Source: an uncultured Rikenella sp. (GTDB lineage Bacteria > Bacteroidota > Bacteroidia > Bacteroidales > VadinHA17). From it: a DNA stretch of 30,507 nucleotides. Both the position numbers and the translations under genes were made by a program. Where the stretch lies: NCBI GenBank assembly GCA_964530645.1, contig CAZHAI010000001.1:1-30507 (forward strand), written 5' to 3'. The notes beneath the pieces were generated by a model. The model had not been told where the DNA came from. It did not search any database and saw only the letters and a program-made list of their open reading frames with translations. This document shows positions 3,526 through 28,546 of the stretch, piece by piece; the first letter of the stretch is position 1; each line of letters begins with the position of its first letter.

Positions 3526-6138
3526 ATGAGAAGAAGATTTTATTGCGCATTGGCCCTGATACTTGCTGTGACATCTGTCGCAACGGCGACTCACAACAGG
3601 GCCGGTGAGATCACCTACAGGCAGATTTCCGACCTTACCTTTGAAGTGACAGTGACAACTTTTACATATACCCTCAGCAAGGCTGACAGGCCGTCACTTG
3701 ACGTGGAATGGGGTGACAACTCAATCACCAGTGTCGGAAGGGACTCTGAGACTTTCCTGCCCAACAACTATAAGAAAAACGTTTACACTGAGCAGCATAC
3801 TTATCCCGGACCCGGTGTCTACAGGATAGTCGTACAGGATCCGAACAGGAACCTGGGCGTTGAAAACATCCCCAACTCGGTTAATGTTGTCTTTTCTATC
3901 TCTACCGTTCTCATCGTCAACTCCGCGGTAGGACGCAACAGCACCCCCGTGCTGCTCAATCCTCCCTATGACAAGGCAGCGCTTGGTCAGATTTTCATCC
4001 ATAACCCCGCGGCCTTCGATCCTGACGGTGACAGTCTTTCATATAAACTCACAGTCTGCACAAGGGAGGATGGCAAACCGATCCTGAACTATACATTACC
4101 TGCTGCTTCCAGAACTTTCTATGTTGATTCCATCTCCGGTGACCTGGTCTGGGATGCCCCGACTGCTATCGGCATTTACAATGTTGCAATGGAAATTCAG
4201 GAATGGCGAGCCGGCATTAAGATAGGCATCGTTGTCCGGGATATGCAGATTGAGGTATACGAGACTGACAACAAACCTCCCGTCACCTCTGCACTTCCGG
4301 ATCTGTGTGTGGAGGCAGGCGAGACCGTCTCACTTGAGATCACCGCCACAGACGCTGATCTCGATTCAATAACCCTTCTGGCTACCTCGGGTATTTTCTC
4401 TGCAACAGATTGTCCCGCCACTTTCACTACAATTTCCTCTTCAGCCGGGCTTACACGGGCAAGACTCATGTGGGTACCCTGCCACAGTGCCGTCCGTCAT
4501 CAGCCGTATGATATCATTATCAAGGCGGAGGACTCAAATGATGATCTCCAGCTTGTAGACATTGACAACATGAGCATCAAGGTTCTCGGACCTTCACCAG
4601 TGTTGCTCTCAGCTGTTCCTGTTGGCAAGTTCGCCCAGCTCACCTGGGCCGGCTACAATACAAGCTTTATTTCGGGATTCAGCATCTACCGGCGCGAGGG
4701 AGCATCTTCACTGACGGCTGACACCTGCTATGACGGCATACCGCCCTCTGCCGGATTCATCAAGGTCGGATATGTTGCCGGTCACACCGCCATCTCTTTC
4801 ACTGACACCGACAACGGCAACGGCCTCGACGCAGGTACCGAATATGCCTACAGGATAGTGGCTGTCTATCCCAACGGAACAGAGAGCAAGCCTTCCAACG
4901 AGATCGTTACATCGCTCATAACAGGCATTCCCCTTATAACAAACGTTTCAATCAGAAATACGCACCCGGTCAACGGGTCGCTGACTCTTGCCTGGCAGAA
5001 ACCCCGGGACCTTGATACTATTCCTGCCAACGGGCCTTATGAATATCTTATCTACCGGGCAGAGGGAGTCGCAGGCACCTCCTGGACCCTGATCCACACA
5101 CTCCCGACAGCCGATCTTAATGATACCGTGTATGTCGATACACTGATCAACACACTCGAAAAGGCCTGGGTGTACAAGGTTGAGCTTTACAATAACGCTC
5201 CTGGCGACAGGTTCCTGATTGGTGATCCCGGCATCGCTTCTTCGCTGTTTATCACGGCCCTGCCGGGAGACAGGAAGGTGAGGTTTGTAATTAACCGCAA
5301 TGTTCCATGGATCAATACCTCCTATGATTTTTACAGGTTCAACGGGGTGACATGGGTGCTTGTCGGGACAACCAACCAGCTCAACTTCACAGACGGGAAT
5401 CTTGTCAACGGCACAGAATACTGTTACTATGCCGTATCCACCGGAGGATACCAGGGAGCAGGTACGCCAAAGAACCTTATCAATCTTTCGCAGCGCACCT
5501 GTGCCGTGCCAGTGGACAATGAGCCCCCGTGCACGCCTGAACTGACAGTCTCATCTCAGTGCGACAGTCTTTACAATACAGTCCGCTGGACTATTGAAGA
5601 TCCTCTCTGTTCGGAGGATATCGCCGGATACAAATTATTCTACAAGCAGACGACAGGGAATGATTTGTCGCTACTGATCACATTTGATGACAGGGAAGTG
5701 CTTAAATACATTCACCCGCTTCCCGAATACGTTGCGGGATGCTATGCAATATCATCCTTTGACGTGAACGGGAATGAAAGTCCCCTTTCAACCATTGTTT
5801 GTGTGGATTCATGCAACTTCTACGAGATACCCAATGTATTCACTCCCAACGGGGATGATGTGAACGACTGGCTGCTGGCCAAGACCTCGGCGCTGGTGGA
5901 GCGGGTGGAGTTCAGGCTTTTCAACAGGGCCGGAGTTCTTGTGTTCAGCACTACCGAACCAAGGCTTAACTGGGACGGCACCTACAAGGGCAACGTAGTC
6001 CCAACCGGCGTATATTACTATGACTGTGAGGTATTTGAACGAAGGGTCAGCGGTCTGGAACAGTTTCATCTGAGCGGTTTCATCCATGTCATCACTGAAA
6101 AGGGAGCTGGTCCCGCAATTATCGAAGGAAAAAAATGA
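3526..6138 (+). CDS. T9SS cargo protein with type B (gliding-motility-associated, CHU_C) C-terminal domain and FN3/Ig-like repeats
   Basis: Signal peptide, then ATHNRAGEITY; FN3-like segments (YAYRIVAV, YCYYAVS); C-terminal IPNVFTPNGDDVND...FNRAGVLVF...WDG...GVYYY. Confidence 0.88.
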   Translation: MRRRFYCALALILAVTSVATATHNRAGEITYRQISDLTFEVTVTTFTYTLSKADRPSLDVEWGDNSITSVGRDSETFLPNNYKKNVYTEQHTYPGPGVYRIVVQDPNRNLGVENIPNSVNVVFSISTVLIVNSAVGRNSTPVLLNPPYDKAALGQIFIHNPAAFDPDGDSLSYKLTVCTREDGKPILNYTLPAASRTFYVDSISGDLVWDAPTAIGIYNVAMEIQEWRAGIKIGIVVRDMQIEVYETDNKPPVTSALPDLCVEAGETVSLEITATDADLDSITLLATSGIFSATDCPATFTTISSSAGLTRARLMWVPCHSAVRHQPYDIIIKAEDSNDDLQLVDIDNMSIKVLGPSPVLLSAVPVGKFAQLTWAGYNTSFISGFSIYRREGASSLTADTCYDGIPPSAGFIKVGYVAGHTAISFTDTDNGNGLDAGTEYAYRIVAVYPNGTESKPSNEIVTSLITGIPLITNVSIRNTHPVNGSLTLAWQKPRDLDTIPANGPYEYLIYRAEGVAGTSWTLIHTLPTADLNDTVYVDTLINTLEKAWVYKVELYNNAPGDRFLIGDPGIASSLFITALPGDRKVRFVINRNVPWINTSYDFYRFNGVTWVLVGTTNQLNFTDGNLVNGTEYCYYAVSTGGYQGAGTPKNLINLSQRTCAVPVDNEPPCTPELTVSSQCDSLYNTVRWTIEDPLCSEDIAGYKLFYKQTTGNDLSLLITFDDREVLKYIHPLPEYVAGCYAISSFDVNGNESPLSTIVCVDSCNFYEIPNVFTPNGDDVNDWLLAKTSALVERVEFRLFNRAGVLVFSTTEPRLNWDGTYKGNVVPTGVYYYDCEVFERRVSGLEQFHLSGFIHVITEKGAGPAIIEGKK

Positions 6139-19244: not shown

Positions 19245-20744
19245 ATGAAAAGGCTTTGGTACATTATCCCGGCAGTAATTCTGACAGCAAGCGCATGTTC
19301 ATCTGTGCGCTTCGCGGGTGCCACAAACGATGACCTGTACTACAGGCCGTCAAATGCACCTGTTACAGCAGCCACGGTTCAGGACAGAACCGCCGGTCAG
19401 TACTATGACAATATATTTGCGGCTGATACCCTTATCGCAGATGAGTATATCCCTGACGGCGAATACCTGGAATATGCAGCCGGCGAGGCTAGTGTGGTGA
19501 ACAACTACTACGGCAGCCCCAGCGAAAGGATCTACATGTTCAATGATGACTATTTTTACCCTTACTGGAGAGACCCCTTCTACTACTCACCCTTCTCGAT
19601 GAGGCTCAACTTCGGTTACGGATACGGAAGCTGGAGCCCCTTCTCATCACGGTACTCCTGGGGATATGATCCTTTCTACTACGACATGTATTCACCTTAC
19701 TCATATTACAGCCCTTATGATTATTACTGGGGTGGATACCCATACTACGGCGGATACTACGGATACAATAATTATTACGGTTACAACAACTACTTCGGAT
19801 ACGGCGGTTACAACCCCTGGTATTCAGGCTATGGATGGCCTTCATACTATAACGGCAGCAATGACTATGTGGCAACAACCAGCCGCAGGGGAGGTTACAG
19901 CACCATGTCAAGAGGCACATCCTCCAACTCTGACAGCAGAAGCAAGTCCGGATATGCACCTTCCGGAACAACATACAACAGACGCGGCATCCCGGCAGCC
20001 GAATCAGCAACACCGGCCGGTGCCACAGGTGCCAACGCCAGGAGATCATCTCAGGAGGCCGGTACTGTAAGCAGGGAGGGGACCACTTCAGGTACGGTTA
20101 CCAGACCTGAATACACGAGGCGTGAGGCTGGCGAAACCACCGTCCGGAATCCGACCCAGACCCGCACACAGTCGCAGGTGAGGACTGAAACTCCGACCCA
20201 GAGCCGTACCCAGACGCCGGTCAGGACCGAAACATCCACACAGACACGTACACAGTCGCAGAATCCGGTAAGAACGCAGACCCAGACTGTCAACAGGCCT
20301 CAGTATCAGCCTTCCGAAAGGAGCTATACTCCGAGCTACAATAATCCCAGAGTGAGTTCAAGGCCTTCGTACAACACTACACGCAGCGGCGGCACGACTA
20401 CGCAAAGCAGCGGTACAGTATACAACAGAAGCACCTCCTCAGGCAGCAGCACACCGGCTTACACGCCCTCCAGATCGTCGTCATCCCAGGTGCAGTATTC
20501 TGCTCCCTCGCGCAGCAGCAGCGGATCTTCATACTCATCCGGCAGCAGCAATGGCGGATCGTCCTACTCAGGAGGCAGGAGCAGCGGCAGCAGCAGCAGC
20601 GGTTCATCCTATTCCTCCGGCGGCAGGAGCAGCTCCGGTTCGGGATCCTCATACTCAGGCGGAAGCTCCGGTTCAGTATCTTCCTCCTCATCCTCCTCAT
20701 CCTCCTCATCCGGGCGAAGCTCATCATCAGGCGGAAGAAGATAA
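19245..20744 (+). CDS. Lipoprotein with Tyr/Gly-rich and Ser/Arg/Thr-rich low-complexity regions
   Basis: Signal peptide II ending ILTASAC (Cys18), then NDDLYY; 36 Tyr in 112 residues (19533-19868); long Ser/Gly tail. Confidence 0.85.
   Translation: MKRLWYIIPAVILTASACSSVRFAGATNDDLYYRPSNAPVTAATVQDRTAGQYYDNIFAADTLIADEYIPDGEYLEYAAGEASVVNNYYGSPSERIYMFNDDYFYPYWRDPFYYSPFSMRLNFGYGYGSWSPFSSRYSWGYDPFYYDMYSPYSYYSPYDYYWGGYPYYGGYYGYNNYYGYNNYFGYGGYNPWYSGYGWPSYYNGSNDYVATTSRRGGYSTMSRGTSSNSDSRSKSGYAPSGTTYNRRGIPAAESATPAGATGANARRSSQEAGTVSREGTTSGTVTRPEYTRREAGETTVRNPTQTRTQSQVRTETPTQSRTQTPVRTETSTQTRTQSQNPVRTQTQTVNRPQYQPSERSYTPSYNNPRVSSRPSYNTTRSGGTTTQSSGTVYNRSTSSGSSTPAYTPSRSSSSQVQYSAPSRSSSGSSYSSGSSNGGSSYSGGRSSGSSSSGSSYSSGGRSSSGSGSSYSGGSSGSVSSSSSSSSSSSGRSSSSGGRR
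20151..20282 (+). repeat. Three degenerate ~14-aa coding repeats (PTQTRTQSQVRTET / PTQSRTQTPVRTET / STQTRTQSQNPVRTQT)
   Basis: Read directly from the translation; units start at 20151, 20193 and 20235 (42-nt period). Confidence 0.8.
20679..20711 (+). repeat. Poly-Ser tract (11 Ser) containing (TCCTCCTCA)x3
   Basis: 9-nt unit at 20682, 20691 and 20700. Confidence 0.85.
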
Positions 20745-22344: not shown

Positions 22345-22986
22345 TTAACAGTTGTCTGCATCCAGGGACCTCAGCAATAAAGCTCGGGTCCCTGGTCCGT
22401 TATTCAGGAGCAGGTCGATGATGCTCATCCCCGGGGTGAAACCGTGTCTTTCACCGAAGACCTGCGTGTACGGGATGTCTGAATAGCCTGCAATTTCTGA
22501 CTGTCTCTTCGGGGTGATGCTATAACGGTAATCATTCACCAGGCTGCCTTCGGGCTCGAATTTATCGGTATAATCAATCTGCACTCCCAGACCCAGTGCA
22601 TCGCAAACTGCGCCAAGCGCGGCGGTGTTCAGATCAAACAGGAAGCTGTACTGCCTGGTGATGACATCCCTGATAAGGTCATAGTAGTACTCGAAAAAAG
22701 GGGCAGCGGCATAAGCCGATGTTATACTCCCCAGGTGCTGCTCACGCCACCTTTTGCTCCCGTCAATCTCCAGCCCGCTTATGGGAGTCTTGTGAAATGA
22801 GCCCCTAAGAACAGGAACGATCAGGGGGAGGGAGCCGTTTGCTCCCATTATTATGCACCTGTTGCGGTAAGTCTGCCTGTGATAATTCTCGCATCTCTCG
22901 ATGATCACCCTTCTGCTCTTCGCTATGAGGCTGAAATACTCAGCGGGAGGGAAATATGCGGTGGAGAGAAGAACCTCCTCAGTCAT
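22345..22986 (-). CDS. WbqC-family protein
   Basis: STAYFPP, ENYHRQTYRNRC.I, W...H..SI.SAY..APFFEYY, Y.QVF...HGF.PGMSIIDLL.N.GP. Confidence 0.9.
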   Translation of the reverse strand: MTEEVLLSTAYFPPAEYFSLIAKSRRVIIERCENYHRQTYRNRCIIMGANGSLPLIVPVLRGSFHKTPISGLEIDGSKRWREQHLGSITSAYAAAPFFEYYYDLIRDVITRQYSFLFDLNTAALGAVCDALGLGVQIDYTDKFEPEGSLVNDYRYSITPKRQSEIAGYSDIPYTQVFGERHGFTPGMSIIDLLLNNGPGTRALLLRSLDADNC

Positions 22987-22991
22987 CTAAT

Positions 22992-23738
22992 TCAGAGGCT
23001 GTTGATCCGGCTTGCAGCAAAGCCTGCCCCGAACCCGTTGTCAATGTTCACCACTGTAACTCCTGCAGCACAACTCGTCAGCATGGCAAGAAGGGCTGAA
23101 ATGCCTTCAAACGACGCACCATATCCAACACTTGTAGGAACTGCGATCACCGGCATGTTCACAAGACCTCCGATTACGCTTGCAAGCGCACCTTCCATGC
23201 CGGCTATCACAACAGTTACCTTGCATGAGCGTATCTCAGGCAGCTTGTCAACCAGCCTGTGTATGCCGGCCACCCCGGCATCGTAGATCCTTACCACATC
23301 ATTGCCGAGAAGTTCGGCAGTGACTGCAGCTTCTTCAGCAACCGGGATGTCAGAGGTGCCTGCAGTGATTATAGCAATCTTTGTGGCCGGAGGAGTGATC
23401 TCCTTTCTCCTGATGCTGATTATGCGTGCAATCTCGTAGTAGACGGCATCTGGGAACGAGGGAGCTATGTAATCAAACATCTCTTTTCCTGCCCTTGTAC
23501 CTATTATATTATTGCCATGCCCTTCCATTGCATGAAAAATGGCCCTCACCTGCTCCGGCGTCTTGCCGGCGCAGTAAACTATCTCCGGATAACCCGTCCT
23601 GAGCTCACGGTGATGGTCAATGCGCGCGAATCCAAGGTCAGTATAAGGAAACTCTTTCAGCTTCTCCATGGCCTCCTCCACACTGACCGATTTGTTCCTG
23701 ATACCGTTTAGTATCTTCTCAAGCTCTGCTGCATTCAT
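22992..23738 (-). CDS. larB: NPN cofactor biosynthesis protein LarB (NaAD carboxylase/hydrolase)
   Basis: DHHRELRTGYPE, AGTSD.PVAEEA, DAGVAGIHRL, AGMEGAL, PTSVGYG, MLTSCAAG.VVNIDNGFGA. Confidence 0.95.
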   Translation of the reverse strand: MNAAELEKILNGIRNKSVSVEEAMEKLKEFPYTDLGFARIDHHRELRTGYPEIVYCAGKTPEQVRAIFHAMEGHGNNIIGTRAGKEMFDYIAPSFPDAVYYEIARIISIRRKEITPPATKIAIITAGTSDIPVAEEAAVTAELLGNDVVRIYDAGVAGIHRLVDKLPEIRSCKVTVVIAGMEGALASVIGGLVNMPVIAVPTSVGYGASFEGISALLAMLTSCAAGVTVVNIDNGFGAGFAASRINSL

Positions 23739-23740
23739 TA

Positions 23741-24529
23741 TTATTCCGTTTTATTCATGCTTCCGGTGCGGTAACCCTCAGCATCGATAGTAACATATTT
23801 GAAACCCAATGCCCTGATGGCTTCTGACAGGTTCACGCGCGTTTCCGTTATGGCCATCCGCTCGAAGTGTCCGGCTCTCAGCTCAATTCTGACAAGTTCA
23901 CCGTGCACTCTCACCCGGGCTCCGGGAAATCCTGCTGCTGTCACCAGGTTTTCAGCAGCCTCTGTTCTGCGCAGATCGCCCGTATTAATAACAGTATCAT
24001 GAGGGAACCTTGTCAGCAGGCAGGCATTTGACGGTTTGTCGCTTACCTCAAGTCCTGCTTCCCTGGCATATGCCCTTATCTCCGTTTTTGTGAGTTTGGC
24101 TTCAGCAAGAGGACTTCTGACACCGGCCTCCTTAAGAGCTTTCAGTCCGGGACGATACTCTTTGAGATCGTCGGCGTTTGTGCCGTCAAAGACGAAGGCA
24201 TATCCGTCATCACGAGCTGAGGCTGTAACCGCCTTCATCACCTCTGTCTTGCATAGATAACAGCGGTCCGGCGGATTGGAAAGCACCGCGACAGGGATCC
24301 CCAGCCCAAGTATCCTGTGCGTTACTCCGGCCTTCCTGCAGAAATGTCCGGCATCATCAACCTCTGAAGAGAACATGTACGGAGTGCTGACGGTTACAGC
24401 CATGACCCTGAGACCAGGAACGCCTGCGGCTACACTCACAAGAAAGGTGCTGTCAGTACCACCTGAAAGGGCGATCACAGCTGAACCGGCCTCCGCAAGG
24501 ATGGCCCTGAGGTTTTCGAGCTTATCCAT
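23741..24529 (-). CDS. larE: NPN cofactor sulfur transferase LarE (CxxC...C type)
   Basis: PP-loop LSGGTDS; RCYLCK (C90, C93); DGTNADD...YRPG; KPSNACLLTR (C170); RVRVHG; GYRTGSMN. True start is MDKLENL at 24529; the ORF-track extension to 24619 lies inside larC. Confidence 0.94.
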   Translation of the reverse strand: MDKLENLRAILAEAGSAVIALSGGTDSTFLVSVAAGVPGLRVMAVTVSTPYMFSSEVDDAGHFCRKAGVTHRILGLGIPVAVLSNPPDRCYLCKTEVMKAVTASARDDGYAFVFDGTNADDLKEYRPGLKALKEAGVRSPLAEAKLTKTEIRAYAREAGLEVSDKPSNACLLTRFPHDTVINTGDLRRTEAAENLVTAAGFPGARVRVHGELVRIELRAGHFERMAITETRVNLSEAIRALGFKYVTIDAEGYRTGSMNKTE

Positions 24530-24534
24530 TTGAC

Positions 24535-25896
24535 TTATTCCTTTCCGGTGAAAAGTGCCGATATCTCCTGCATTACCTGCTTCATCGGAAGGCCCGTCGC
24601 TGCTGCAATGGCTGCGCACCTGTCTGCCTCGGGCTTTACTGATACAAGCCTCTCACCGAAGAATGATTTTTTGATAACCACCTTCCCGAAACGGGTGTCA
24701 ATCTCCTCAAATTCCCTTTGCAGTGTCTCTTTGGTGAAGGGGGTGACTCTAAGACCGATTGTTGTTGATTCGGTAAACAGTATCTCCCTGACCGCATTTA
24801 GCTGGTCCTCTTCGCAGATGACGCTGAGAGTGAAGGCGGGCCTTCCCTTCTTCATTATGACAGGTGTATACCATACGTCGCCTGCACCCGCGGAAAAGAG
24901 TCTTCCTGTAAGGTATTCCGACAGTTCGGGGTTCATGTCATCAACATTGCACTGAACGAGCAGAGCCTGGTGACCCATGCCATGCTCCTCCGCAGTCTCA
25001 GCCAGATACACCCTGAGCATGTTTGGCCGCGATGGGTTGTCTTTGTGACCTATCCCGTAGCCGCTCTTCCTTATGATAAGATTCATTGATTGAGGAAGCG
25101 GCTCAGCCATCGCCGCTATTATTGCTGCCCCTGTCGGGGTTGTGGCCTCGAAACTTACTCCGCCGGTATGTACCGGGAAACCGCTGATTATTCTGGCAGT
25201 GGCCGGTGCTGGGACGGGCAGCAGGCCGTGCTTGCATTTCACCATGCCTCCACCGAGCTCAACAGCTGAAACATAAACCTTATCAACTCCAAGATCATCA
25301 AAACAGATTGCAGCTCCTACAATGTCAACGATTGAATCAATGGCTCCGACCTCGTGAAAATGAATCTCCTCTAGCGGTTTGTTGTGAACTGCTGCCTCCG
25401 CCTCCGCAATGTGACGGAAGATCTTCATTGACAGCTCTTTCACAGACAGGGGAAGGGTACTTGCATTAATTATCCTTTCGATGTCAGCCAGGTTCCGGTC
25501 AGGGTGGATCTCGTGGCCATGGCCATGGTCGTGGCTGTGGCCGTGCTCGTGGTCGTGCGCATGGTCCTGTTCATTGTCGTGCACATGGTCGTGCACATGG
25601 TCGTGGCTATGGTCATGCTCGTGGTCGTGCAAATGGTCGTGCTCGTGGTCGTGCAAATGGTCATGCTCGTGCTCGTGGAAATGCTCGTGATCCTCCACAC
25701 CTTCAGCAATGACTTTGACTTTGGTGCCTGCAATGCCGTGACGCTGGTCACGTGTAATCTCCAGCCGCCACCCTACTGTATTTAACTTCTGCAGGCCGCT
25801 GATCAGGGTCTCGCGACTGACACCCAGGTCTAGCATGGCCCCCAGGTTCATGTCGCCGCTTATGCCGGAAAAGCAGTCGTAGTACAGTATCTTCAT
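24535..25896 (-). CDS. larC: NPN cofactor nickel insertase (CTP-dependent cyclometallase) LarC, single uninterrupted ORF with His-rich insert
   Basis: DCFSGISGDM, HFHEVGAIDS, HG.LPVPAPAT, TPTGAA, NVDDMNPE, MKKGRP, ESTTIG.R, KPE. Confidence 0.95.
   Translation of the reverse strand: MKILYYDCFSGISGDMNLGAMLDLGVSRETLISGLQKLNTVGWRLEITRDQRHGIAGTKVKVIAEGVEDHEHFHEHEHDHLHDHEHDHLHDHEHDHSHDHVHDHVHDNEQDHAHDHEHGHSHDHGHGHEIHPDRNLADIERIINASTLPLSVKELSMKIFRHIAEAEAAVHNKPLEEIHFHEVGAIDSIVDIVGAAICFDDLGVDKVYVSAVELGGGMVKCKHGLLPVPAPATARIISGFPVHTGGVSFEATTPTGAAIIAAMAEPLPQSMNLIIRKSGYGIGHKDNPSRPNMLRVYLAETAEEHGMGHQALLVQCNVDDMNPELSEYLTGRLFSAGAGDVWYTPVIMKKGRPAFTLSVICEEDQLNAVREILFTESTTIGLRVTPFTKETLQREFEEIDTRFGKVVIKKSFFGERLVSVKPEADRCAAIAAATGLPMKQVMQEISALFTGKE
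25504..25689 (-). repeat. His-rich (HX)n tandem repeat within larC
   Basis: 29 His in 62 residues; 24-nt units at 25624-25647 and 25648-25671 (23/24 identical); perfect 12-nt duplication at 25576-25599. Confidence 0.92.
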
Positions 25897-25964
25897 TCTT
25901 TTTTAGTTTTTTTAACAATCGGCGCCCTGCCCGCATAATCGCTTGCGCCCGTGCTCTCAGGCTG

Positions 25965-26012
25965 CTAATATAAGAATACGGAGCCGATATATTGAAAAAA
26001 ATGTTTACTTTG
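25965..26012. promoter_or_regulatory. Candidate back-to-back promoters in the larC/DUF362 divergent region
   Basis: TATATTAG on - (25965-25972) and TTACTTTG on + (26005-26012), each with one mismatch to TAnnTTTG. Confidence 0.3.
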
Positions 26013-26050
26013 CATCTTCTCTTTTTAGGGGTAATATCTAACAGCAGGGA

Positions 26051-26977
26051 ATGAAAAGACGAAATTTCTTAAGGAGTTCGCTTGGTGCCGGACTGGCGGC
26101 AGGTACGTTCATGAGTTTTGGCAGGTACGAACAGGCATTTGCAGGAAAAAGACTGCCGGCAGGCGCCGATTATGACCTCATCGCAGTGATGGGAGGGGAG
26201 CCTGCAGCTATGTTTGACATGGGTATTCAGGCGATGGGAGGCATGGGGAGCTTCGTGAAAAAAGGGCAGAAAGTGCTGGTGAAACCCAATATAGGATGGG
26301 ATGTTGTGCCTGACAAGGGTGCAAACACAAACCCCGCCCTCGTTAAAAGGATAATCGAGCACTGCTACAGGGCAGGAGCAAAAGAGGTATATGTATTTGA
26401 CAACACCTGTGACAACTGGATAAAGTGCTACAAGAACTCCGGGATAGAACAGGCTGTGAAGGACGCGGGTGCAAAGATCGTCCCTGCAAATTCGGAGAGC
26501 TACTACCAGGAGGTTTCTATCCCCAACGGCAAGAAGCTGACGAAGACCAAGGTTCATGAGCTGGTTCTGGAGAGCGATGTCTTCATAAACGTACCTGTCC
26601 TGAAACATCACAGTTCAGCCATGATGACAGGAGCCCTTAAAGGGATGATGGGAGTTGTCTGGGACCGTGGATACTGGCACAGGAATAATCTCAACCAGTG
26701 CATCGCTGACTATGCGCTTTACCCGAAGAAGCCGCAGCTGAACGTTCTTGATGCTTACAACGTCATGATGCGCAACGGTCCCCGCGGTGTCTCAGTGGCT
26801 GACCTCTCCGCCATGAAATCACTTATGATCTCAACCGACTGGGTGGCAATCGATGCTGCCGGAGCAAAAATGATGGGCAAGGAGCCCTCATCAATAGAGC
26901 ATATTGCACTTGCTGCCGGAATGGGCATCGGCAAGATGGATCTTGCAGCAATGAATATCCACAGGATGAAAATGTAA
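26051..26977 (+). CDS. DUF362-family protein with Tat signal peptide
   Basis: MKRRNFLRSSLGAGLAAG twin-arginine leader; DUF362 motifs VLVKPNIGW, TNPALV, FINVPVLKHH...TGALKGMMG, D.VAIDA. Confidence 0.88.
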   Translation: MKRRNFLRSSLGAGLAAGTFMSFGRYEQAFAGKRLPAGADYDLIAVMGGEPAAMFDMGIQAMGGMGSFVKKGQKVLVKPNIGWDVVPDKGANTNPALVKRIIEHCYRAGAKEVYVFDNTCDNWIKCYKNSGIEQAVKDAGAKIVPANSESYYQEVSIPNGKKLTKTKVHELVLESDVFINVPVLKHHSSAMMTGALKGMMGVVWDRGYWHRNNLNQCIADYALYPKKPQLNVLDAYNVMMRNGPRGVSVADLSAMKSLMISTDWVAIDAAGAKMMGKEPSSIEHIALAAGMGIGKMDLAAMNIHRMKM

Positions 26978-26983
26978 CCCTGA

Positions 26984-28546
26984 ATGAGGTCCTCCGCCCT
27001 GAAACATATCCGAACCGTTTTTGCAGTTTTAATGCTGCTTCTGTTTGCATTTCTCTTCATTGATTTCAGGGGTCTTCTCGGGGAAAAGGCTTTTGCCCCT
27101 ATACTCTACCTGCAGTTCGTTCCCTCTTTCCTTAAATTTGTTATTGCGGGTGTGGCCGCCTCAACGGGCTTCATTGTGGTTTTGGTACTCACCGCACTTA
27201 CAGGCAGGACATACTGCTCGTTCCTCTGTCCCCTGGGGATACTGCAGGACGGCATCAGTCGTGTGGGAGGGCTTTTCAAGAGACGCTTCCGCAAATACGG
27301 ATACAAAAAGCCCTATACGATTCTGCGCTATTTTATCCTGGTGGTTACAGCAGCGATCCTGGCAGTCGGAGGCGTTTATGTCCTTACAATTCTTGACCCG
27401 TACAGCACCTTTGGCAGGTTCATGACCTATTTTGCGCAGCCTGTCGTACTCTTTATAAATAACCTGCTGGCATCCATCCTTGGTAAATTTGACATCTATA
27501 CAATTTACCGTGTTGACATTAAGCCTTATGAACTTGCTGTTTACATAGTTCCATCAGCATTCCTCCTGCTTGTCGGCATACTCTCATTCAGATACGGACG
27601 GCTCTACTGCAACACTGTCTGCCCGGTGGGAACACTTCTGGGGTTGCTGAGCAAGGTTTCGCTTTTCAGGATAAGGTTTGAAGATGAAAAGTGCACACGA
27701 TGCGGCCGGTGCGCAATGTCATGCAAATCATCCTGCATCGATTTCCTCAACAAGAGCGTCGATCTCAGCAGGTGCGTCAACTGCTTCAACTGCATTGACT
27801 CATGCAAGGAGAACGGCATGTCATATGGCCTGGTCCGGTTTAAGAAACCAGCCGCAGGTGAAGTCGGTACTGATCCGTCCAGGCGCAGTTTCATTGCCGG
27901 TTCACTGGTTCTGCTTGCCGGAGGATCTCAGCTGGTCAGGGCTCAGGGTACAACTCCCGCCCCCACAAAAGATTCCACAGTGAAGGAGGACAGGCTCTAC
28001 CCTGTTTCACCTCCGGGATCAGCAGGGCTTGAATCATTCACATCACGGTGCACCGCATGCACCCTCTGCGTCAACGCCTGCCCCACCAACGTACTCCAGC
28101 CTTCAGTAAGTGAATACGGATTTGCGGGAATCATGCAGCCCAGGATGGACTTTCACAGCGGCTTCTGCAACTATGACTGCAACCGCTGCACAGACGTCTG
28201 TCCGACCGGTGCCATAATGCCCCTCATGATTGAAGCCAAGAAGCTTACCCAAATCGGCAAGGCAGTCTTTATCAAGGATAATTGCATAGTCCATACCGAA
28301 AAGACAGCCTGTGGGGCGTGCTCCGAACATTGCCCTACCAAAGCATGCCACATGGTTCCCTATGAGGGCAAGCTGCTTATTCCGGAAGTAAGGGATGAGA
28401 TATGCGTCGGCTGCGGCGCTTGCGAATATGCCTGCCCGACAAGACCGTTCCGGTCCATCTTTGTTGACGGGAACCCCCTTCATGAAGCAGCCATCAAACC
28501 CGAGACGGAAGAGATGGAGGCAGTGCCATCCGAATTCCCCTTCTGA
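26984..28546 (+). CDS. Membrane polyferredoxin (NapH/MauN-like membrane domain fused to NapG/MauM-like multi-[4Fe-4S] domain)
   Basis: Several N-terminal TM helices; two CxxxCP motifs (YCSFLCP, YCNTVCP); six ferredoxin-type Cys clusters; internal SRRSFI plus hydrophobic segment. Confidence 0.9.
   Translation: MRSSALKHIRTVFAVLMLLLFAFLFIDFRGLLGEKAFAPILYLQFVPSFLKFVIAGVAASTGFIVVLVLTALTGRTYCSFLCPLGILQDGISRVGGLFKRRFRKYGYKKPYTILRYFILVVTAAILAVGGVYVLTILDPYSTFGRFMTYFAQPVVLFINNLLASILGKFDIYTIYRVDIKPYELAVYIVPSAFLLLVGILSFRYGRLYCNTVCPVGTLLGLLSKVSLFRIRFEDEKCTRCGRCAMSCKSSCIDFLNKSVDLSRCVNCFNCIDSCKENGMSYGLVRFKKPAAGEVGTDPSRRSFIAGSLVLLAGGSQLVRAQGTTPAPTKDSTVKEDRLYPVSPPGSAGLESFTSRCTACTLCVNACPTNVLQPSVSEYGFAGIMQPRMDFHSGFCNYDCNRCTDVCPTGAIMPLMIEAKKLTQIGKAVFIKDNCIVHTEKTACGACSEHCPTKACHMVPYEGKLLIPEVRDEICVGCGACEYACPTRPFRSIFVDGNPLHEAAIKPETEEMEAVPSEFPF

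Follow-up and report, generated by a model that had tools for sequence, protein, structure and literature searches.

Many prokaryotes make the nickel-pincer nucleotide (NPN) and yet lack the lactate racemase LarA, as has been recognised since 2014-2015. The genes larB, larC and larE occur in roughly a quarter of prokaryotic genomes, and to our knowledge every known NPN reaction is redox-neutral overall. Which protein uses the cofactor where no larA gene is at hand is the question raised by a 30,507-nucleotide stretch of DNA from an uncultured Rikenella sp. (contig CAZHAI010000001.1; the whole stretch is called the window below). Here the larC gene of a larC-larE-larB operon faces, across 154 bp, a two-gene unit with an internal gap of 6 bp. 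The unit encodes a DUF362 protein (PF04015) with a twin-arginine translocation (Tat) signal and a membrane protein with multiple [4Fe-4S] motifs, a polyferredoxin. A first-pass annotation, made from the sequence alone, had described this arrangement correctly and had proposed that the DUF362 protein is the NPN client. We report that this protein is very probably a remote relative of LarA, that its gene lies close to lar genes in three phyla, and that it is a credible, if contested, candidate for NPN use. The features concerned, in window coordinates, are:

26051-26977, plus strand: DUF362 protein, 308 amino acids (aa), with Tat signal (PF04015, 178 bits)
26051-26143, plus strand: twin-arginine signal peptide, residues 1-31, from KRRNFLR to the AFA/G cleavage site
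26603-26680, plus strand: candidate cofactor site, K185-H186-H187 ... T193-G194 ... K197 ... H210 (hhalign, conservation)
26984-28546, plus strand: polytopic polyferredoxin, 520 aa, NapH-NapG fusion (Fer4_5 twice; similarity to NapH, NapG and NapF of NCBIfam)
27872-27949, plus strand: internal twin-arginine motif and weakly hydrophobic transmembrane domain 5 (TMD5), DPSRRSFIAGSLVLLAGGSQLVRAQG, residues 297-322
25897-26050, no strand: divergent intergenic region, 154 bp, common to the lar operon and the DUF362-polyferredoxin unit
24535-25896, minus strand: larC, CTP-dependent nickel insertase (PF01969, 469 bits; TIGR00299; NF052512)
23741-24529, minus strand: larE, sulfur transferase (TIGR00268 equivalog)
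22992-23738, minus strand: larB, NPN biosynthesis, nicotinic acid adenine dinucleotide carboxylase/hydrolase (NF033503 equivalog)
22345-22986, minus strand: wbqC-like gene, last of the lar operon (PF08889, Pfam, 133 bits)

The DUF362 protein and its relation to LarA

The PF04015 match covers profile positions 1-199 of 200, and its score compares with a gathering cut-off of 24 bits; relatives of the window protein fall into more than 5,500 clusters at 50% identity. The N-terminus, MKRRNFLRSSLGAGLAAGTFMSFGRYEQAFA followed by G, reads as a twin-arginine signal (Pfam TAT_signal, E = 0.015), with the motif, the hydrophobic h-region and the AxA cleavage site of a Tat substrate, and export is predicted on these features. 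TAT_signal is significant in 30 of 66 relatives, and the twin-arginine pair is kept in 92-94% of 532 orthologues. A signal of this type implies that the protein leaves the cytoplasm folded and, as a rule, with a cofactor. The DUF362 protein contains no conserved cysteine cluster.

DUF362 and the DUF2088 of LarA both belong to Pfam clan CL0471, for which reason Desguin and colleagues used DUF362 as the outgroup of their LarA tree (PMC11770544). The connection can be seen directly in profile searches: true lactate racemases with about 90% identity to L. plantarum LarA (reference sequence identical to PDB 5HUQ chain A) reach 26 bits with the Pfam DUF362 model, whose gathering cut-off is 24, and the match spans LarA residues 82-245, which hold all NPN ligands. 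This cross-match was exposed by a homologue search from three LarA structures, which otherwise returned only close LarA relatives (73-99% identity) and did not deepen the profile. Fold comparison points the same way. When an AlphaFold2 model of the DUF362 protein (pLDDT 73, pTM 0.78) was compared with the PDB by Foldseek, the top 18 matches were all LarA-family proteins (probability 1.0, E from 4e-6 to 2e-4), with query-normalised TM-scores of 0.33-0.47 for this moderate-confidence model. The next matches, after a sharp drop, are Rossmann proteins of a generic kind, with E no lower than about 1e-3.

Narrower searches do not cross the gap. Neither the window protein nor its 66-member profile reached LarA among PDB sequences, and a hidden Markov model (HMM) of the Tat-type DUF362 clade gave no match to LarA sequences. 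Lar_N (PF09861) and LarA_C (PF21113) are both absent from the window protein, and Lar_N matches one of the 66 relatives at E = 0.08. The bridge is found only through Pfam's broader DUF362 model and through profile-profile or fold comparison. Because the Lar_N and LarA_C models are not matched, the relation is one of clan-level homology and not of family membership; in that sense we hold with high confidence, on profile evidence and a modelled fold, that the DUF362 protein is a distant LarA homologue. This qualifies the earlier statement that the window contains no larA: it stands for canonical LarA, whose HMM finds nothing in all six frames (best E = 1.9), while the proposed client is itself a clan-level relative.

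The alignment made by hhalign, in the same register as the Pfam DUF362 match on LarA, places K197 on LarA Lys184 (the NPN tether), H187 on His174 (catalytic), T193-G194 on Ser180-Gly181 (phosphate loop) and P87 on Pro76 (TRP motif). Among the 532 orthologues K197 and K185 are conserved in 99% and H187 and H210 in 98%; H210 lies 13 residues after K197, where LarA has His200 16 residues after Lys184. The site residues are kept even in a 26%-identical, non-secreted Streptomyces DUF362 protein. The DUF362 protein thus plausibly retains a LarA-type cofactor site, as far as aligned sequences can tell.

LarA racemases and epimerases (PF09861 plus PF21113; PDB 5HUQ, 2YJG, 9EIA, 6D6Z and 9Q3J) provide the nearest solved fold, in clan CL0471; among folds that tether NPN, theirs is the only one known for long. 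The DUF362 protein resembles them in its invariant Lys and His at the Lys184 and His174 positions, and in that its gene adjoins larB, larC and larE. Unlike them it is about 150 aa shorter, has no LarA_C domain nor the substrate-binding residues of that domain, fails the Lar_N model, and bears a Tat signal, so that it is predicted to be periplasmic. Since both the C-terminal domain and the second catalytic His of LarA are missing, 2-hydroxy-acid racemase chemistry should not be assumed.

The polyferredoxin partner and a proposed mechanism

The pairing with a polyferredoxin is close to obligate. In a near clade (DUF362 proteins 54-93% identical) DUF362 is followed in the same orientation by a polyferredoxin gene in 73 of 74 genome loci, drawn from Bacteroidota, Ignavibacteriota, Desulfobacterota, Gammaproteobacteria, Verrucomicrobiota and Kryptoniota; in a distant clade (about 35% identical) the same holds for 44 of 48 metagenome loci. 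Clustering of the neighbours for clues to the substrate revealed nothing conserved besides the polyferredoxin. The two proteins very likely form a functional module and, as both are directed to the periplasmic face, a two-subunit redox module facing the periplasm is well supported. This conserved two-gene module is defined whatever the role of NPN. In 12 loci without lar genes, a divergent gene for a conserved polytopic membrane protein of about 170 aa lies about 660 bp upstream of DUF362 (at 3601-4104 of our locus L028, and in 11 others); the protein has no Pfam match.

The polyferredoxin itself has many Fer4 matches. Hydropathy indicates transmembrane helices at about residues 8-26, 52-72, 118-136 and 184-202, followed by the segment SRRSFIAGSLVLLAGGSQLVRAQG at 299-322, which falls below the transmembrane threshold used. 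CX3CP motifs are formed by C78/C82 and C209/C213, CxxCxxCxxxC motifs lie at 237 and 264, and the C-terminal part, similar to NapG and NapF, carries cysteine motifs at 356, 395-406, 434/443-450 and 474. NapH models score the protein at 82 and 70 bits, below their equivalog cut-offs. For this architecture, named PFD, integration by both Sec and Tat with a periplasmic NapG-like domain has been shown experimentally, and an internal twin-arginine motif before a weakly hydrophobic segment defines the Tat-dependent TMD5 of the family (Tooke et al. 2017, PMC5449189). Like the PFD studied there, MLMS-1 Q1NSB0, the window protein has four transmembrane helices, two CX3CP motifs, cytoplasmic clusters, a twin-arginine motif before a weak TMD5 and four periplasmic clusters; unlike Q1NSB0, for which seven clusters are predicted, it has six motifs by our count. 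By this analogy two of its [4Fe-4S] motifs would be cytoplasmic and four periplasmic. As the architecture is that of the dual Sec/Tat-inserted PFD family, the NapG-like domain is expected to face the periplasm, a topology likened to PFD by architecture and not by direct homology to Q1NSB0. NapGH serves the periplasmic nitrate reductase; here, in contrast, genes of the Nap, Nos and Mau types are lacking. DUF362 is not mentioned in the topology study (PMC5449189), nor did term searches of that paper turn up any discussion of the genes around PFD.

In the mechanism that we propose, the plus-strand pair would be a two-subunit, periplasm-facing oxidoreductase. The DUF362 protein would be loaded in the cytoplasm with NPN supplied by the divergent larC-larE-larB operon, the tether probably being Lys197, with His187 and His210 at the active site, and would then be exported, folded and NPN-loaded, via Tat. 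Once in the periplasm, it would associate with the polyferredoxin at the latter's NapG-like domain of four clusters; the NapH-like membrane part of the polyferredoxin (four transmembrane helices, two CX3CP motifs, two cytoplasmic clusters) would carry the connection on to the quinone/quinol pool. The steps that we infer are NPN binding, export after loading, a physical complex and quinone coupling. We consider it an even question whether the DUF362 protein uses NPN, and the full scheme, in which the polyferredoxin passes electrons between an NPN-loaded, Tat-exported DUF362 protein and the quinone pool, could fall either way.

Pairing with a membrane Fe-S protein implies net electron transfer instead of the internal hydride return (racemisation) of LarA. 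The first-pass annotation had electrons passing from the substrate to quinone. The NapH-NapG architecture does fit a periplasm-facing Fe-S chain and a quinone pool; the direction of oxidation is no better supported than its reverse, and because the characterised NapGH is a quinol dehydrogenase (PMC5449189), a dehydrogenase is no more likely than a periplasmic reductase driven by quinol. A far-reaching extension, which we offer only tentatively and would not expect to hold, is that DUF362 is a major missing family of NPN clients and that its Tat form with the polyferredoxin is the first quinone-coupled, net-redox nickel-pincer enzyme, the nickel pincer converting two-electron hydride transfer into one-electron Fe-S transfer.

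Parts of this scheme have counterparts elsewhere. The Zymomonas glucose-fructose oxidoreductase is close in concept, being exported by Tat with a tightly bound nicotinamide cofactor that is loaded in the cytoplasm; it differs in its Rossmann fold, its use of NADP and its lack of a membrane Fe-S partner. NphT (PDB 9YEB; Nat Chem 2026, PMC13524815) is an NPMN-dependent hydride transferase of the aldo/keto reductase (AKR) fold, with a Lys tether and a His Ni ligand. It was found, as in this case, by the logic of larBCE present and larA absent nearby, and it shows that non-racemase NPN chemistry exists. Unlike the proposed DUF362 enzyme, NphT is a cytoplasmic TIM barrel that lacks an Fe-S partner and passes hydride from one organic substrate to another. 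The NphT study targeted proteins without LarA homology, does not mention DUF362 in its main text, and gives as non-LarA clients only NphT and an NPAD-dependent ornithine cyclodeaminase (PMC13524815).

Paralogues of the polyferredoxin, 38% identical, occur with a partner other than DUF362 in P. distasonis (NZ_OY725762.1; L174, 1533-7530) and B. finegoldii (NZ_OY725888.1; L175, 5938-8869). The partners are proteins of about 465 aa that combine a Tat signal, an AKR domain and, at the C-terminus, a 4Fe-4S dicluster domain; when aligned to NphT (PDB 9YEB), the AKR domain has His at the position of His144 (the Ni ligand) and Glu at that of Lys200 (the tether). The polyferredoxin family thus pairs repeatedly with exported enzymes of hydride-transfer fold, which fits the general idea without proving it. 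By analogy, these Tat-AKR-ferredoxin/polyferredoxin pairs of gut Bacteroidales may be a sister class of periplasmic hydride-enzyme modules, possibly working on the same principle.

Linkage to lar genes and the competing explanations

Whether NPN belongs to this module depends largely on how its genes are distributed relative to larBCE. Three arrangements are seen. In the Bacteroidales arrangement, seen in 22 of the 52 well-flanked near-clade loci, larB and larC lie in the flanks, and all these loci share the order wbqC-larB-(larE)-larC with DUF362 divergent. Competibacteraceae (Gammaproteobacteria) have a co-directional arrangement of CBS, DUF362, polyferredoxin, larC, larE, larB and polA (L060, L169 in the complete genome CP065007.1, and L171). 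In Streptomyces sp. NBC_01450 (Actinomycetota), about 4 kb separate the DUF362 gene from larE-larB-larC, within a biosynthetic-type cluster that encodes neither a polyferredoxin nor a canonical LarA. Of all neighbours, DUF362 alone is common to the lar contexts of Bacteroidota, Gammaproteobacteria and Actinomycetota. A tblastn search of PLSDB (72,556 records) found DUF362 in only four, and both of the megabase-sized ones also carry larB and larC.

The Streptomyces cluster (NZ_CP109481.1, 37-46 kb; L176, 7122-16380) has in one arm a LuxR regulator, the non-secreted DUF362 protein, which bears a Cys-containing C-terminal extension of about 170 aa, and a cyclase; the divergent arm holds a 3-deoxy-D-arabino-heptulosonate 7-phosphate synthase, a chorismate-binding enzyme, larE-larB-larC and then a 1648-aa open reading frame (ORF). 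This content suggests that one step of an aromatic secondary-metabolite pathway depends on NPN. About a dozen loci of Bacteroidales, among them L001 (7651-9845), L017, L020, L021, L027, L034, L045 and L087, have no larE between intact larB and larC genes (the gap is 93 bp in L001); there larE may be elsewhere in the genome or replaced.

Several observations weigh against the proposal that the DUF362 protein uses NPN. As for the linkage, 30 of the 52 well-flanked near-clade loci have no lar gene within 10 kb, and in the distant clade, about 35% identical, lar genes are found within 10 kb in 0 of 80 loci and are absent from 19 of 19 well-flanked ones. Many loci of Ignavibacteriota, Desulfobacterota and other Bacteroidota likewise have no adjacent lar genes. 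As all linked Bacteroidales loci have one synteny, their adjacency may go back to a single ancestral event. The lar insert is missing between otherwise identical flanks in L063 and L067, both from Bacteroidales. Competibacteraceae L170 and L172, identical in upstream synteny to their relatives, lack polyferredoxin and larCEB as one block, and their DUF362 gene is intact, with its Tat signal and every conserved site residue and no polyferredoxin or lar gene nearby; either its partners are encoded elsewhere or it works without them. As for the protein, the profile-profile alignment to LarA is statistically weak when taken alone (E = 0.24-0.29), the structural model is only moderate, the position of LarA His108 aligns to Tyr127 so that the second catalytic His is absent, and the entire LarA C-terminal domain is missing. 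The equivalent of the Ni-ligand His200 is ambiguous, a low-stringency alignment putting H210 near LarA Met216/His217. As for the chemistry, we know of no precedent among NPN enzymes for flavin-free oxidation of a hydride carrier via one-electron Fe-S clusters; a Ni-centred one-electron step could provide the hydride-to-cluster coupling, which is speculation.

Some of these points carry less weight than others. Many LarA homologues are not adjacent to larBCE, which we take to make non-adjacency weak evidence. LarA homologues with a single His are known (PMC12611868), so the missing second His does not exclude NPN chemistry. In sum, the adjacency of DUF362 and lar genes is real but not general. 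The idea of a DUF362 client draws on the LarA-like fold, the common clan CL0471, the aligned Lys and His and the linkage in three phyla, and is held back by the majority of loci without lar genes within 10 kb.

The most probable alternative is a real DUF362-polyferredoxin redox module without NPN, an explanation that we regard as possible though on balance doubtful. The conserved Lys, His and Asp would then bind another metal, cofactor or substrate, the lar neighbours would reflect lineage-specific synteny, and larCEB would serve another client encoded elsewhere in the genome, for instance a homologue of canonical LarA or an NphT of the AKR type. It draws on the weak LarA alignment, on the distant clade, on the many lar-free loci of other lineages, on L063 and L067 with their lar-less version of the same junction, and on the orphan yet intact DUF362 genes. 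It is also in keeping with a P. distasonis fragment in PLSDB, where the module is present with no lar gene within 12 kb, and with the finding of no Bacteroidales larB or larC in that database. What it explains poorly is the recurrence of the association: three lar-DUF362 architectures in three phyla are improbable by chance, the odds that a cluster of about 3 kb lands beside a given gene in a genome of several Mb being about 1e-3 per lineage. The gain or loss of the polyferredoxin and larCEB as one block in Competibacteraceae and the invariance of the tether-equivalent Lys likewise favour NPN use by the DUF362 protein.

A second alternative is that NPN is used by wbqC or by a gene outside the window, and that the DUF362 unit merely has an intergenic region in common with the lar operon. 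The wbqC gene does follow larB closely and accompanies it in 31 Bacteroidales loci. It also stays beside DUF362 where the lar insert is absent (at 8978-9628 in L063 and 9182-9850 in L067), and because it adjoins DUF362 in these lar-less relatives, the lar cluster looks like an insert between the two. As wbqC is absent from the Competibacteraceae and Streptomyces lar-DUF362 clusters, we rank it low as an NPN client; it matches PF08889 only, with no NCBIfam family, and no link to a known NPN-binding fold was found. We regard this alternative as unlikely. Finally, the DUF362 protein might be non-catalytic: an NPN carrier, or a factor that assists or assembles the polyferredoxin's periplasmic Fe-S domain. 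This would suit the near-obligate pairing and the lack of conserved substrate-related neighbours, and is very improbable given the LarA-like enzyme fold with its highly conserved polar pocket, the occurrence of DUF362 without polyferredoxin in Streptomyces and some Competibacteraceae, and the pairing of paralogous polyferredoxins with bona fide AKR enzyme folds.

The first-pass annotation had worried that a link between DUF362 and NPN might already be in print. We found no such proposal in the searchable literature, where DUF362 figures only as a phylogenetic outgroup of LarA. What is new here is the setting of a LarA-clan protein: its cellular location, its partner and, probably, the type of reaction. 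If the DUF362 protein does bind NPN, a large and widespread domain of unknown function gains a cofactor and a testable chemistry, and nickel-pincer biochemistry would reach the periplasm and the respiratory electron transport of anaerobes in digesters, sediments, wetlands and the gut. The polyferredoxin family with dual Sec/Tat insertion would likewise gain a physiological partner, which was left unnamed in the topology study (PMC5449189).

The lar operon and other features of the window

All ORFs described in the first-pass annotation were found where it had placed them, and its view of larC-larE-larB as intact and tightly coupled is borne out. The products pass the NCBIfam equivalog cut-offs: LarB scores 297 bits with NF033503 (cut-off 175), LarE 269 bits with TIGR00268 (cut-off 150), the match beginning at residue 33 of the long ORF, and LarC 215 bits with TIGR00299 (LarC1; cut-off 90) and 142 bits with NF052512 (LarC2; cut-off 50). 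The larE ORF as listed reaches a GTG at 24619 and overlaps larC; its likely start is an internal ATG at 24529 (MDKLENL...), and orthologues of LarE are 43-70% identical over about 257 aa. Reckoned from this ATG, the larC-larE gap is 5 bp, and those of larE-larB and larB-wbqC are 2 bp and 5 bp. The wbqC gene had been overlooked by the annotation; larC-larE-larB-wbqC is one tight minus-strand operon. The intergenic region between larC and DUF362 matches no Rfam family and has promoter-like matches of a generic kind only; Rfam and promoter/terminator scans of the window as a whole were uninformative.

The closest relative of the window is a metagenome-assembled genome of an uncultured Rikenella sp., at 93% protein identity. 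LarC, which is 398-453 aa long among orthologues, has at residues of about 69-130 (window 25510-25690) an insert of about 60 residues rich in His and Asp (HEHFHEHEHDHLHDHEHDH...), presumably a nickel-binding or nickel-storage region. LarE (23741-24529) contains a CxxC pair (DRCYLCK) and a conserved ACLL cysteine; judged by work on T. maritima LarE, this three-Cys pattern recalls the non-sacrificial type that depends on a [4Fe-4S] cluster, although NCBIfam names the family 'sacrificial'.

Five PLSDB records proved unusual. Four from strain TSDC17.2-1.1 (NZ_OY725750.1, NZ_OY725762.1, NZ_OY725888.1 and OY725868.1, named 'plasmid 5/17/34/78') and NZ_CP154629.1, a 2.6-Mb Acetoanaerobium 'plasmid', carry core housekeeping genes, which across the five include tgt, lptF/G, ftsK and trxB. 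Evidently these records are chromosomes, whole or in fragments, that were wrongly filed as plasmids.

The other ORFs of the window are unrelated to the lar and DUF362 genes: they encode an integrase, pyruvate kinase, a type IX secretion system protein, a hybrid kinase, Nth, AroB, AroC, TilS, prolyl-tRNA synthetase, a porin-like protein and methylmalonyl-CoA epimerase. At 19245-20744 lies an ORF for a secreted or lipoprotein-like protein of 499 aa that matches no Pfam family, is extremely rich in Tyr, Gly, Ser and Thr and has long tails of low complexity; its position upstream of the porin-like gene is kept in relatives.

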